NCBI RefSeq assembly: GCF_003334385.1
Contig: NZ_QOWN01000004.1
Length of the DNA stretch: 64,000 bases
Direction: 5' to 3' (one strand)
Source of the DNA: Escherichia coli
Lineage (GTDB): Bacteria > Pseudomonadota > Gammaproteobacteria > Enterobacterales > Enterobacteriaceae
The notes under the pieces were generated by a model that had not been told where the DNA came from, made no database searches, and worked only from the letters and a program-made list of their open reading frames with translations. The position numbers were made by a program, and so were the translations under genes. Numbering within the stretch: position 1 is the first letter of the stretch; each line of letters opens with the position of its first letter. Positions 34,187-38,833 of this stretch are shown in pieces.

Positions 34187-35725
34187 TTATTCTGAAGCAA
34201 GAAATTTGTCGAGATAAGGTACAACATAAGGAACAGAAGTCTGGAATATACCATTTTCAATCCAGTAAAGGGTGTTTGCCCCTGGGCGTAAATTAAAGGC
34301 GGTGAGATATGCATCAGCTGCTTCCCGGCTCATCCCCTTCATTTCATAAACCTTGCCAAGCAACACATAATTTAGCCAGGACATTTCAAGATCAATGCCA
34401 GTATTTATCGCCTGGTAAGACTCATCTGTTTTACCTTTTACCAGAGCACTGACCGCTTTTATTTGATATATAATGGACAGGTTGTTCAATTCCGGCAGTG
34501 TAACAATGTTATCTATTTCTGTGTTCAGTGCTGCTAATTGTTTTTCATCTAAAGGATGTTGAGAATGGCGCACGATATCAACTAATGCTTTTTCTGCTCT
34601 CGCGTAGGTAAATTCTGGGGATGATTGAACAATCTCACCTAATAATTCACTGGCACGGTTCAATGATTTATCATCGCCATGCAGTAAATAATCATGTGCC
34701 TGATAAAAATTAGTTAATAACGCACCACGATGCGGCAAAATTTTCTGGAGCGTCTCCTGCATTCGTTGTGGCCACGGTTGGTTTAACGCTTTTGATAAAC
34801 TCTCCAGTAAATCATTTTGAATCGCCAGCTGATTACCGTTAGTGATGACATAACGTTTATCCAGCATGGTTGAACCATCTGCATTGTCTACCAATTTTAT
34901 CGACATAAAGCATTGTTGAGCACGGTATTGGCGCTGATTAACAAACGCAATAGATAATGTTTTACCGGAACTGCTCGGTTCATCAATGTTGTAGTTGATT
35001 TTGTCATGCACCATAAAGGTGGAGAAGGTGTTAAGTGATGTCGCCACCAAATCACCCACGCCTATCGCGTAAGAGAGCTGATACGGGGAACTCCAGCTGT
35101 TACAACTTTTATTTACCATATTAATGTCAATATCGCGTGGATTGAGCAAAATACGCGATTTGCTCATAGGAAGACGTGTATCAAGACTTGAAAACGCTAC
35201 CAGTGCTACACAGATACCTAACGACAACAGGAAAAAAAACCATACCCAAAAGGTAGTGAATCGTTTGCTTTTAACTGGGGATTGTTCAGGTGGCGTTGCG
35301 GTGTTTTGAATGTTAAGACTGTGGGAGGGAGAATCTGTGGCAGGAACCGCCTCTGGTATAGGGGGAGGCGAAGATAGCATTATTTCCTCTCCCTCTTCTT
35401 CGCTGTACCAGATAACCGGCACCATTAATTTATAGCCGCGCTTTGGTACAGTAGCGATATAGACAGGACTATCTTCATCATTATCTTTTAATGACTTACG
35501 TAGTTCTGAGATACTCTGCGTCACAACGTGATTGGTGACAATACTTCTCTTCCAGACATTATCGATAAGTTCATCCCTGCTAAGTACTTCGCCACTGTGT
35601 TGAGCAAAGAAAACCAGAAGATCGATTAATCTCGGCTCAAGGGTAAGTTGACGCCCATTGCGGCTAATTTGGTTTATGGACGGAGTAACAAGCCATTCGC
35701 CAACGCGAACTACAGGTTGTTGCAT
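34187..35725 (-). CDS. cadC: ToxR-like membrane-bound activator CadC, 512 aa
   Basis: N-terminal winged helix, single TM, periplasmic sensor domain. Confidence 0.93.
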   Translation of the reverse strand: MQQPVVRVGEWLVTPSINQISRNGRQLTLEPRLIDLLVFFAQHSGEVLSRDELIDNVWKRSIVTNHVVTQSISELRKSLKDNDEDSPVYIATVPKRGYKLMVPVIWYSEEEGEEIMLSSPPPIPEAVPATDSPSHSLNIQNTATPPEQSPVKSKRFTTFWVWFFFLLSLGICVALVAFSSLDTRLPMSKSRILLNPRDIDINMVNKSCNSWSSPYQLSYAIGVGDLVATSLNTFSTFMVHDKINYNIDEPSSSGKTLSIAFVNQRQYRAQQCFMSIKLVDNADGSTMLDKRYVITNGNQLAIQNDLLESLSKALNQPWPQRMQETLQKILPHRGALLTNFYQAHDYLLHGDDKSLNRASELLGEIVQSSPEFTYARAEKALVDIVRHSQHPLDEKQLAALNTEIDNIVTLPELNNLSIIYQIKAVSALVKGKTDESYQAINTGIDLEMSWLNYVLLGKVYEMKGMSREAADAYLTAFNLRPGANTLYWIENGIFQTSVPYVVPYLDKFLASE

Positions 35726-36299
35726 AATAGAAACTCATTCGAAAAGGGAATGATGCAATGATAATTGCCACAACCTATTTTTACCATCTATAGATGGGTT
35801 TATTTACATATTATTGGTGAATGCAAGACGTTATTTTTACCAGCCATAAACTTCTTGATTACATAGTATTACGAAAGGATTTTACTGAGAACCAGAAGTA
35901 ATATTCCTTACCATCAAAATTCATCATCTTTGCCAAAGAAAAATGTTCAGAAAATAATCCATGGAAAATTGTCCGGAGCACTTACTATTTTAATGGATTG
36001 TTAGTCTTTGCATGAGCAAGCGAACTGATACATTTCTCTTTGTTCTCATTCAGAAAATCTCATCAGTCGCCGTTCAGACCGGTGTTGTGCTTTATGGATG
36101 CGTTACGCTCCTGATGACGTCATTTGACGTTCAACAGCATCACGGGGCCGCACGACATTTCACGTCAGTTAGTGCTATAGCTCAGGAACAAATTTTCCCG
36201 AATTGGGATATGCCCGCAAATTGCTGGTGATGTGGGGAGAATCTGGTTGAGTTCGGTAGAATTGATTTGGAGGCAGAACGCTTAAATCGTGGCGTCCTG

Positions 36300-36332
36300 A
36301 AACGAAAAACGGACCTCCGTGGAGGTCCGTTT
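36300..36332 (-). terminator. Intrinsic terminator of pheU (cggacctcc/ggaggtccg stem plus U-tract)
   Basis: Perfect stem 9 nt past tRNA 3' end, followed on minus strand by TTTTTCGTT. Confidence 0.8.
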
Positions 36333-36341
36333 ATATGAATT

Positions 36342-36417
36342 TGGTGCCCGGACTCGGAATCGAACCAAGGACACGGGGATTTTCAATCCCCTGCTCTACC
36401 GACTGAGCTATCCGGGC
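36342..36417 (-). tRNA. pheU: tRNA-Phe (GAA anticodon), 76 nt including encoded CCA
   Basis: Reverse complement matches the E. coli tRNA-Phe sequence as I recall it (GCCCGGATAGCTCAGTCGGTAGAGCAGGGGATTGAAAATCCCCGTGTCCTTGGTTCGATTCCGAGTCCGGGCACCA). Confidence 0.95.
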
Positions 36418-36523
36418 AACGGGGCGCATTAAACCGTAATCTGCACATCTCGTCAACCTAATTTCAGTAAAAGCGATTCAACTGCTTAAGATTGCGGCAA
36501 ATCGCTTCTTTTCTGTGTTTCTG

Positions 36524-37099
36524 TCAGGTCAATGCACCACCCTGGCGGCAGCGGGCGAAGCGCAGGATATCTTCCGCCAGCCGATGTGCAGTGTCGACAT
36601 CCGCCTGGCTACGATTCACCAGCATTCGGCTTAAACAGCCTTCCAGCACCAGTTCCATCTGCTTTGCTACCATCGCCGGATCGTCAACTTCCAGTGTGGT
36701 TAACAGTTCGTGGGTGAAATCGTAGGCCGCGCTTTTTTGCTGATCGGCCAGTTGATGAATAGGGTGGCCAGGATCGGGATAAAACGTACAGGCAGCGATA
36801 AATAGACAGCCCGGATAGCGGTTGTTTTTAACGCACTCCGATAACGCCTGATAACGTGCCAGCAGCTTTTGTTCGGCGGTTTGCGTTTCGTCCAGCATCA
36901 GCTGACGACGCCAGACATCTATCTGTTGGCTAAGATAACGCAGCGCATCGTAGAGGATTGCCTCTTTGTCTGGCCAGAAGCGGCGTAGCTCGTCCAGTGG
37001 ATAATCCACACGTTCAGCAACCATCTCCAGCGTGGTGTTGGCAATCCCTTGTAATTCTAATAATTTCAGGGCTTCTCCCAGTACATCTTCACGTTGCAC
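36524..37099 (-). CDS. yjdC: TetR-family regulator YjdC, about 191 aa
   Basis: ORF 36524..37123; N-terminal HTH; start uncertain between ATG at 37123 (199 aa) and GTG at 37099 (191 aa). Confidence 0.8.
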
Positions 37100-37135: not shown

Positions 37136-38833
37136 TCACGGTTGGCGATCGCGCAAATGTGCGCTGAAGGTTTCAGCATCCATAAAGCCCGTGACGCGTG
37201 CTTGTGGATGCTCCTGGCCTTGTCCGTCAAAAAAGAGAATTGTCGGTAGGCCAAGGACATTAAGATGCTTTAACAGCGCCACATCTTGTGCGTCGTTGGC
37301 CGTGACGTTGGCCTGAAGTAAGACCGTGTCTGCTAACGCTTTTTGCACCTGCGGGTCGCTGAAGGTGTATTTCTCAAACTCTTTACAGGCGACGCACCAG
37401 TCGGCATAAAGATCTAACATCACCGGTTTGCCTTTGGCTTCAACGAGCGCCTGATTTAACTCATCTACCGTTTTGATTTGTGTAAAGTTGAGATGCGTCT
37501 GAGTTTGCGCGGTATGCGTCGCACCAAATGCCCAATCCTGAAGTGGGCGCACGCTAACCAATGCCGCTGCCAGCAGAATAATTTGCACAATACGCATCCA
37601 GCCGCGTTTAGCCTGTAGGCTGGTGATAAAGGCCCAGCCAAAGAATGCGACACCCAGCGCCGACCACAAGCGTAATCCCCATACATCACCAATCACTCGC
37701 TCCAGCAGGAAGACCGGCAGTGCGAGGATCACAAAACCAAACGCGGTTTTGACTTGTTCCATCCACGGGCCGCTTTTCGGCAGCAAGCGGTTACCAAAGA
37801 CGGTAATTAGCATCAGCGGCAGGCCCATGCCCAACGCATAGAGATAAAGCGTGCCGCCGCCCAGCCACATGTTCCCGCTTTGGGCGATATACAGCAGAAT
37901 CGCGCTAAGCGGTGCGGTGGTGCATGGTGAACAGATCAGTCCGGCAATCGCCCCCATAACAAACACACCGCCAGGTGAGCCGCCCTGTTGGCGATTGCTC
38001 ATCAACGTGAGACGTGTTTGCAGCGAAGAGGGGAGTTGCAGGGTAAACAAGCCAAACATTGACATCGCCAGCAAGGTAAAGACGATGGCGAGGCCAATGA
38101 GCACGTATGGGTGCTGTAGCGCCGCCTGGAACTGTAACCCTGCGGCGGCAACCACCAGACCCAGCGCCGTGTAGGTCAGCGCCATCCCCTGCACATAAAT
38201 AAAGGTCAGCAACAATGCTCTGGCAGTGGAGAGCCGCTGTTTACCACCCAGCACGATGCCAGAAATCAGTGGGTACATTGGCAGCACGCATGGCGTAAAG
38301 GCGATACCAATACCGATCAACAACGCCCAGAGCGCGGAAAAGGGCAATTGCGCGGTGGGCTGCTCTTGCTGCGGAACAGACACAGGCTGTGGCGCTGCGT
38401 TGTTGGCGACCACTTCGCTTAACGGAACGGTTTTGGTTTCTGGCGGATAACAGAAACCGGCATCAGCACAGCCCTGGTAGGTGACAGTTAACGTCGCTCC
38501 CGCACTCGCCTGGTTGATGGTGACGGGAAGCGTCAGCCGATCGCGGTAAATCTCGCTTTTGCCGTAAAACTCATCTTCATGCCAGACGCCTTGCGGCAGC
38601 TGCACGTCGGCAATTTTCGCGTGTTCCGGCGTAATGCGGATCTGTTTACGGTAGAGGTAGTAACCGTCTTTGATCTGCCAGGTCAGATTAAGGTCATGTT
38701 GGTTTTGCTGAAAATCAAAAGCAAAGGCTTGATCCGCGGGGACAAATTGTGAACGTCCCGGCGCGTCGAATAATCCGGCAAAAACGGAAGTGCTGCAAAG
38801 TAGCAGGATCAGCGTAAAGATGCGTTGAGCCAT
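37136..38833 (-). CDS. dsbD: Thiol:disulfide interchange protein DsbD, 565 aa
   Basis: ORF 37136..38914 trimmed to internal ATG ([19 protein letters not shown] signal peptide); C-terminal CVAC thioredoxin motif. Confidence 0.92.

Follow-up and report, generated by a model that had tools for sequence, protein, structure and literature searches.

A probable scar of an ancient P4-type integrase island beside the tRNA-Phe gene pheU of Escherichia coli

We analysed a 64-kb stretch of Escherichia coli DNA (hereafter the window, meaning the whole of its 64,000 nucleotides), in which ARAGORN identified a single tRNA gene, for tRNA-Phe. Because this gene is flanked by dicD (yjdC) on one side and cadC on the other it is pheU, as an earlier sequence-only reading of the same DNA had named it. 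The segment from 4358000 to 4364500 of the MG1655 chromosome differs from the window at 1 position in 6,501 nt, and the window therefore represents a K-12-like E. coli chromosome. The distance from the tRNA 3' end to cadC, put at about 600 nt in the earlier reading, is 616 nt (35726-36341). This gap has a GC content of 39.6%, falling to 32% in the 256 nt closest to cadC, as compared to 49.9% for the window, and AT-richness is in any case common in intergenic and H-NS-bound regions. On a larger scale, the GC content is 0.385-0.49 over cadC, cadB, lysU and ghoST (26000-36000) versus 0.51-0.53 on the dicD-dsbD side. The features of the locus, all on the minus strand, are the following.

34187-35725, minus strand: cadC, the right-hand flank, a 512-aa open reading frame annotated as cadC (b4133)
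35726-35981, minus strand: AT-rich (32% GC) stretch upstream of cadC, without island homology
35982-36178, minus strand: integrase remnant, a broken P4-type gene found by tblastn with an intact pheU-island integrase
35988-36059, with stop codons to 35982, minus strand: piece C of the remnant, codons 397-420, DFLNENKEKCISSLAHAKTNNPLK, in a third frame
36061-36144, minus strand: piece B of the remnant, codons ~359-391, RDAVERQMTSSG-----A*RIHKAQHRSERRLM, in a frame different from that of piece A
36146-36178, minus strand: piece A of the remnant, codons 1-11 of the L005 integrase, IALTDVKCRAA, with the start codon changed from ATG to ATA
36179-36299, minus strand: spacer between the tRNA and the integrase gene, with homology to the attL-to-int spacer of intact pheU islands
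36300-36332, minus strand: hairpin AAACGGACCTCC-AC-GGAGGTCCGTTT and adjoining T run, the intrinsic terminator of pheU, from a terminator scan
36342-36364, minus strand: attB core, TTCGATTCCGAGTCCGGGCACCA, made up of the final 23 nt of the tRNA, which are duplicated on island integration
36342-36417, minus strand: pheU, tRNA-Phe (GAA), from ARAGORN and Rfam (RF00005, 68.3 bits), equal to pheU b4134 in MG1655
36524-37099, minus strand: dicD (yjdC), the left-hand flank, from the RefSeq annotation of the identical sequence

The part of the gap next to cadC differs in its relationships from the rest. Likeness to an intact island ends at the integrase stop codon, before the stretch 35726-35981, and this stretch has been kept together with cadC in three other Escherichia lineages at 84-93% identity. 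It presumably holds the cadC promoter; a promoter scan of the gap gave no consensus promoter on the cadC strand and one match on the plus strand, which is no more than chance. The tRNA alone was recovered in an Rfam scan of 35500-36700 at E<=1, leaving the gap without an sRNA or cis-element. No integrase-like open reading frame is present in the gap, in line with the earlier reading. The longest frame, 72 aa in length (36012-36230, plus strand), is antisense to the integrase remnant and unannotated in the records examined, and was treated as a chance ORF.

The sequence-only reading had also described the gap as nothing other than AT-rich non-coding DNA, while leaving room for a remnant integrase pseudogene. 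The AT-richness stands, but the remnant does exist, and the description as purely non-coding DNA is lost with it. As tblastn queries against the gap we used the intact integrases of three E. coli genomes with an occupied pheU site, namely L005 (421 aa), L006 (392 aa) and L007 (414 aa). The L005 integrase matched the gap in three collinear pieces on the tRNA strand. Two long HSPs scored 32.7 and 32.3 bits, with a combined E of 1e-9, as compared to a best HSP of 23.9 bits in about 300 dinucleotide-preserving shuffles of the gap, where the best sum of the top two HSPs was 40 against 65 observed. The L005 integrase, the closest intact relative of the remnant, contains the domains Arm-DNA-bind_3, Phage_int_M and Phage_integrase and is 55% identical to the phage P4 integrase over 97% of its length, which justifies the label P4-type. 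The L006-type integrase, found where the locus breaks exactly at the tRNA end, was considered as a relative and rejected, since it does not resemble the remnant, which is accordingly placed in the L005/L007 lineage.

Piece B (RDAVERQM..IHKAQHRSERRLM) has 19 identities in 33 positions to the L005 integrase and contains a 5-codon gap and an internal stop, with the region of the catalytic tyrosine destroyed. Piece C is identical to the C-terminus of the L005 integrase at 14 of 24 positions, including the terminal NNPLK. The short piece A has 8 of its 11 residues in common with MALTDAKIRAA or MALTDVKVRNA of intact integrases, which by itself is a weak, non-significant match (E 0.075), and is supported by its placement 163 nt past the tRNA as compared to 197 nt in an intact island; at the same position E. 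whittamii has ATG GCA CTG ACT GAC GCG AAA. The remnant as a whole thus starts on the minus strand 163 nt past the 3' end of pheU, the corresponding distance in intact islands being 176-197 nt.

No complete three-domain open frame is left in the remnant, where only codons 1-11, ~359-391 and 397-420 persist, in three different frames. The gene has lost about 1 kb from its middle (codons ~12-358) and has acquired frameshifts and internal stops, and the remnant is a pseudogene rather than a functional member of the P4-family integrases. The scar encodes nothing. At the nucleotide level the pieces are 67% identical to the closest intact gene, and about 58% identical at the amino acid level.

Part of this scar is already known. 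In MG1655 it corresponds to the pseudogene yjdQ (b4654) at 4362191-4362353 of NC_000913.3, equivalent to 35982-36144 in the window, and PGAP annotates a pseudogene on the identical sequence at about 35985-36144 on the minus strand ('tyrosine-type recombinase/integrase; frameshifted; incomplete; missing N-terminus'). EcoGene describes yjdQ as a 'P4-like integrase remnant'. A literature search on yjdQ and b4654 returned no relevant paper. Piece B lies inside both annotations and piece A (36146-36178) outside both of them. The retention of the first 11 codons indicates that the gene suffered an internal deletion, rather than the loss of its N-terminus as given by PGAP. The present analysis adds these 11 N-terminal codons, the island origin of the spacer and, probably, of the terminator, the common junction in Escherichia and the tandem order in occupied strains.

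The similarity to islands extends through the DNA between the integrase remnant and the tRNA. Aligned to the intact island locus L008, the window is 96% identical from a point upstream of the tRNA as far as 36209, past which the similarity decays, and the segment 36228-36341 is common to most occupied genomes. Within the first 114 nt past the tRNA (36228-36341 versus 190-323 of L008) the old scar is ~97% identical to a circulating island, as compared to 67% for the integrase pieces. Such a mosaic is not accounted for by simple decay and suggests that the scar later exchanged sequence with incoming islands through recombination or gene conversion. The spacer is 83-91% identical to its counterparts in other Escherichia species.

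The terminator scan predicted a hairpin of 11 pairs, 6 of which are GC, coinciding with a perfect 12-nt inverted repeat (I17). We fetched 80 species-representative loci using DicD as anchor and compared the sequences 3' of pheU. The E. coli hairpin type (ACGGACCTCC..GGAGGTCCGT) was present in 10 of the 80 loci, and at least 9 of these 10 have an L005-type integrase or integrase remnant beside pheU. The loci with both hairpin and integrase or remnant are from Escherichia (L011, L012, L013, L014 and L016), Leclercia (L058), Trabulsiella (L070), Klebsiella spallanzanii (L087) and Raoultella planticola (L090). The hairpin type is also present in Citrobacter amalonaticus (L018), where no integrase match was obtained. 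Most other genera have a different hairpin 3' of pheU, AACCCAGCC..GGCTGGGTTTTT. This association suggests that the pheU terminator is probably island-derived and was brought in with the element's own copy of the tRNA 3' end, in which case termination of pheU transcription by the hairpin is probably the only surviving function of the scar. Since tandem att-like repeats occur in several genera, the hairpin of the other genera may itself stem from another integrative element.

A far boundary of the element was sought throughout the window. As noted in the earlier reading, there is no direct repeat of the tRNA 3' end: the 64 kb contain no second copy of the 23-mer when as many as 3 mismatches are allowed, and none of the 14-mer when as many as 2 are allowed. 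A displaced ancestral terminator or attR was not found anywhere in the window, including the fumB-yjdF spacer, in BLAST searches with the 23 nt plus 300 nt from the 80 species and with a degenerate hairpin pattern.

We also examined how widely the scar is distributed. Of 5,426 complete E. coli genomes, 5,219 (96%) have the 616-nt gap unbroken, and the same scar directly precedes cadC in E. whittamii (L011), in Escherichia sp. E1V33 (L012) and in a divergent strain labelled E. coli SCPM-O-B-8794 (L013). The scar thus does not vary in presence among strains as would an island, being found with cadC in these three other lineages too. In all three, the N-terminal codons are fused to codon ~359 at the same junction (..AAATGTCG/TG.GG.CCCGTGAT.., the slash marking the point of fusion). 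In L013 the junction is longer by 10 nt, suggesting that the E. coli clade underwent a small secondary deletion. The identity of the scar to L011-L013 is 82-92%, as compared to 74-85% at the 4-fold sites of cadC and dicD, so that it would seem to have been inherited vertically under roughly neutral drift. In E. albertii (L016), whose contig stops short of any cadC, the terminator and spacer are shared and the integrase is represented by codons 17-41 with a stop, a part that is missing in E. coli. Given the different integrase part in E. albertii, a single event for the whole genus is no more than plausible.

Other islands occupy pheU in present-day strains. The region between yjdC and cadC is a documented hotspot and major target of islands with P4 integrases (PMC7686366, PMC11537424, 10.1101/549998), and islands at the sister gene pheV are bounded by imperfect attR repeats of 19-23 bp (PMC11537424). 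A 676-nt query centred on the tRNA was contiguous in 3,740 of the 5,426 genomes, the class to which the window belongs, and broken in about 31%, which bears out the claim of the sequence-only reading that tRNA-Phe genes are recurrent sites for P4-type islands. Most breaks are located 114 nt past the tRNA (36228), with others at 36300, at 36336 and exactly at the tRNA end, and in all three broken loci that we opened an intact integrase adjoins the tRNA. In the window, the tRNA and the attB core are intact, and the tRNA and both flanks are contiguous with no inserted element between them; set against occupied pheU loci, the window has the K-12-like island-free state, with 1 mismatch in 6.5 kb to MG1655.

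One occupied genome, NZ_CP042969.1, was traced fully. The order here is tRNA, intact integrase gene, about 80 kb of cargo, attR, scar and cadC, where attR matches the tRNA 3' end at 22 of 23 nt and is followed by the whole K-12-type 616 nt at 99% identity. The cargo includes fimbriae, pgt, a sucrose PTS, a type I restriction-modification system, a two-partner secretion system and a CP4-44-like yee module. In this genome the new island is stacked between the tRNA and the old scar. With its attB core intact, the site continues to receive new islands, which insert upstream of the old scar in about one third of E. coli strains.

We conclude, with a probability of roughly 90%, that an ancient P4-type integrase island left its scar in the gap, beside a tRNA attachment site that is still usable. 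The conclusion is built on the homology and anatomy observed at the locus, on the distribution in the population and among species, and on the tandem order in one occupied genome. According to the proposed history, a P4-family integrative element would have recombined into the last 23 nt of pheU and so brought to lie directly downstream of the tRNA the element's copy of the tRNA 3' end and its terminator, along with its integrase gene and the spacer upstream of that gene. Deletions, the order of which we infer, would then have removed about 1 kb from the middle of the integrase gene (codons ~12-358) as well as everything from its stop codon onward, any attR included, so that some 360 nt of island origin (35982-36341) became joined to the region upstream of cadC. 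These events would predate the split that separated E. coli from E. whittamii as well as from two or more further Escherichia lineages, and since then the remnant would have drifted neutrally in a fixed state.

Two other explanations of the gap were weighed against this history. The site could be virgin, with 616 nt of native intergenic DNA that was never occupied, as might be thought from a gap with no ORF, no att repeat and no island genes and from a comparative table giving 'no mobile element' at pheU in K-12 MG1655 (PMC3032704). We hold this to be highly improbable, given that the three collinear integrase fragments exceed chance, that two independent pipelines annotated a pseudogene here and that the spacer from the tRNA to the integrase is homologous to that of intact islands; an artefactual similarity is excluded by the shuffle control and by the conservation of the junction across species. 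Far from being virgin, 35982-36341 is taken up by the remnant and by a spacer and terminator of island type. It is scarcely credible that the scar was instead left by a modern pheU or pheV pathogenicity island lately deleted from the K-12 lineage. Islands with integrases of the same type are indeed in circulation among E. coli strains, with ~97% identity to the scar over their first 114 nt, but a recent loss is contradicted by the presence of the scar in 96% of the complete E. coli genomes, carriers of new islands included, by the same junction in other Escherichia species and by integrase pieces with just 67% nucleotide and ~58% amino acid identity to the closest intact gene.

A further possibility concerns the extent of the ancient island. 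The scar could be the left end of an element whose cargo, the low-GC block at ~19349-35725 with cadCBA, dtpC, lysU and ghoST and possibly reaching to fumB, entered via pheU and became fixed in Escherichia, while the integrase gene decayed and attR eroded. The idea gains something from the location of cadC 256 nt past the integrase stop codon with no attR in between, from a GC content of 0.385-0.41 in cadC and 0.39-0.49 in 26000-36000, as compared to 0.51-0.53 towards dicD, and from the comparison of species: in the set of 80 species loci, a distance of ~6 kb or less between cadC and pheU is confined to Escherichia, and the gene next to pheU is yjdF or proP in Enterobacter, Kosakonia and Phytobacter. 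When compared to 19349-36341 of the window, the loci with the latter arrangement (L036, L044, L059, L062, L048, L084 and L085) lack cadCBA-dtpC-lysU-ghoST-yjdJI-dcuSR-dcuB-fumB, and mel, adi and bas are absent from them too. In E. coli, yjdF comes after this 17-kb block and proP lies beyond mel, adi and bas. We nevertheless regard a cargo origin of the block as doubtful. There is no right-hand repeat or displaced terminator at the yjdF end or elsewhere, the other genera could equally well lack the block through loss or rearrangement, and the pheU flank is hypervariable in every genus examined, which makes adjacency weak evidence. It also counts against this idea that cad, dcu and fum genes are widespread at other positions in the Enterobacteriaceae. 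If it were true, the lysine-dependent acid resistance of E. coli would be a domesticated island and the pheU terminator a part of the island that replaced the ancestral one, which would be of moderate evolutionary interest.

For the island scar itself, the detection of an integrase fragment changes the call from unoccupied to island scar, following the criterion that the sequence-only reading had set. The sequence-only reading was right to call the locus unoccupied in the sense that it is island-free with an intact attB; it is not unoccupied in the sense of a virgin site, given the integrase remnant and the island-type spacer. Replacing 'unoccupied' by 'island-free but scarred' is of little import beyond bookkeeping. 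For the definition of pheU island boundaries against K-12, the consequence is that 360 nt past the tRNA in the 'empty' reference would be island-derived, and that these same 360 nt recur at the right end of new islands, behind attR.

The flank of pheU showed additional variation among strains and genera. In strain YJ4 (L004, NZ_AP023230.2), where an IS1A abuts the scar at the equivalent of 35932, the cad operon has undergone an IS1-mediated loss: yjdJ is the first gene beyond, and nothing is left of the region from upstream of cadC through cadCBA, dtpC, lysU and ghoST. Another pheU flank was seen in L015 (CP089930.1, 'E. coli' E69, 6759-12573), where a hairpin of its own is accompanied by a dcm-type cytosine methyltransferase and an autotransporter, without the scar and without cadC within 6 kb. 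On the other side of the tRNA, E. whittamii (L011:6644-8659) and E1V33 (L012) have a 671-aa ORF between dicD and pheU with no NCBIfam match, which is absent from the window and from E. coli, and in many other genera the tRNA is located 1.5-2.2 kb further from dicD. Plasmid-borne matches to the locus were obtained in 7 places with the 676-nt query and in 5 places with the 616-nt gap. A tRNA-Phe copy with 91.5% identity to pheU is present at 37307-37436 on the 187-kb plasmid NZ_CP137739.1 (H90).

Degraded or truncated P4-type integrases are common beside pheU in other Enterobacteriaceae, as seen in L014, L090, L068, L073 and L082; the taxa with decayed integrases are Escherichia sp. MOD1-EC7003, Raoultella planticola, Leclercia, Trabulsiella guamensis and Intestinirhabdus. 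Downstream of pheU we also observed a repeated unit, consisting of the last 17 nt of tRNA-Phe, a terminator and the motif GGACTCTCCATCGAACTCCGTTCGATTATTCGCCGC. The repeats are 163 nt apart in L027, L059 and L085, about 325 nt apart in L079 and L081 and 3.3 kb apart in L050, and the taxa concerned are Citrobacter amalonaticus, Kosakonia, Phytobacter and Lelliottia. They look like tandem att scars of another family of elements, either very small or fully deleted.

Of the known systems, satellite phage P4 has the same three-domain integrase layout as the L005 integrase, and in both the integrase gene lies beside the attachment site. P4 differs by integrating at leuX rather than at tRNA-Phe, and no other parts of a P4-like genome are present here. 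The pseudogene yjdQ (b4654) of K-12 MG1655 is the same object as the remnant described here, although its annotation covers the C-terminal pieces only, leaving 36146-36178 and the spacer and terminator at 36179-36332 unannotated. Also close are the P4-integrase islands at pheU and pheV, such as PAI-CFT073-pheU, the LEE at pheU in O26:H11 and GI-pheV with its intP4 types. The scar resembles these islands in the target tRNA, the strand and position of the integrase gene, the core of the 23-nt repeat and the integrase family (PMC7686366, PMC11537424, 10.1101/549998). The islands have an intact integrase gene, 40-100 kb of variable cargo and usually an attR, and are patchily distributed among strains, whereas the scar has about 200 nt of the integrase gene, no attR and no identifiable variable cargo, and is fixed across the species.
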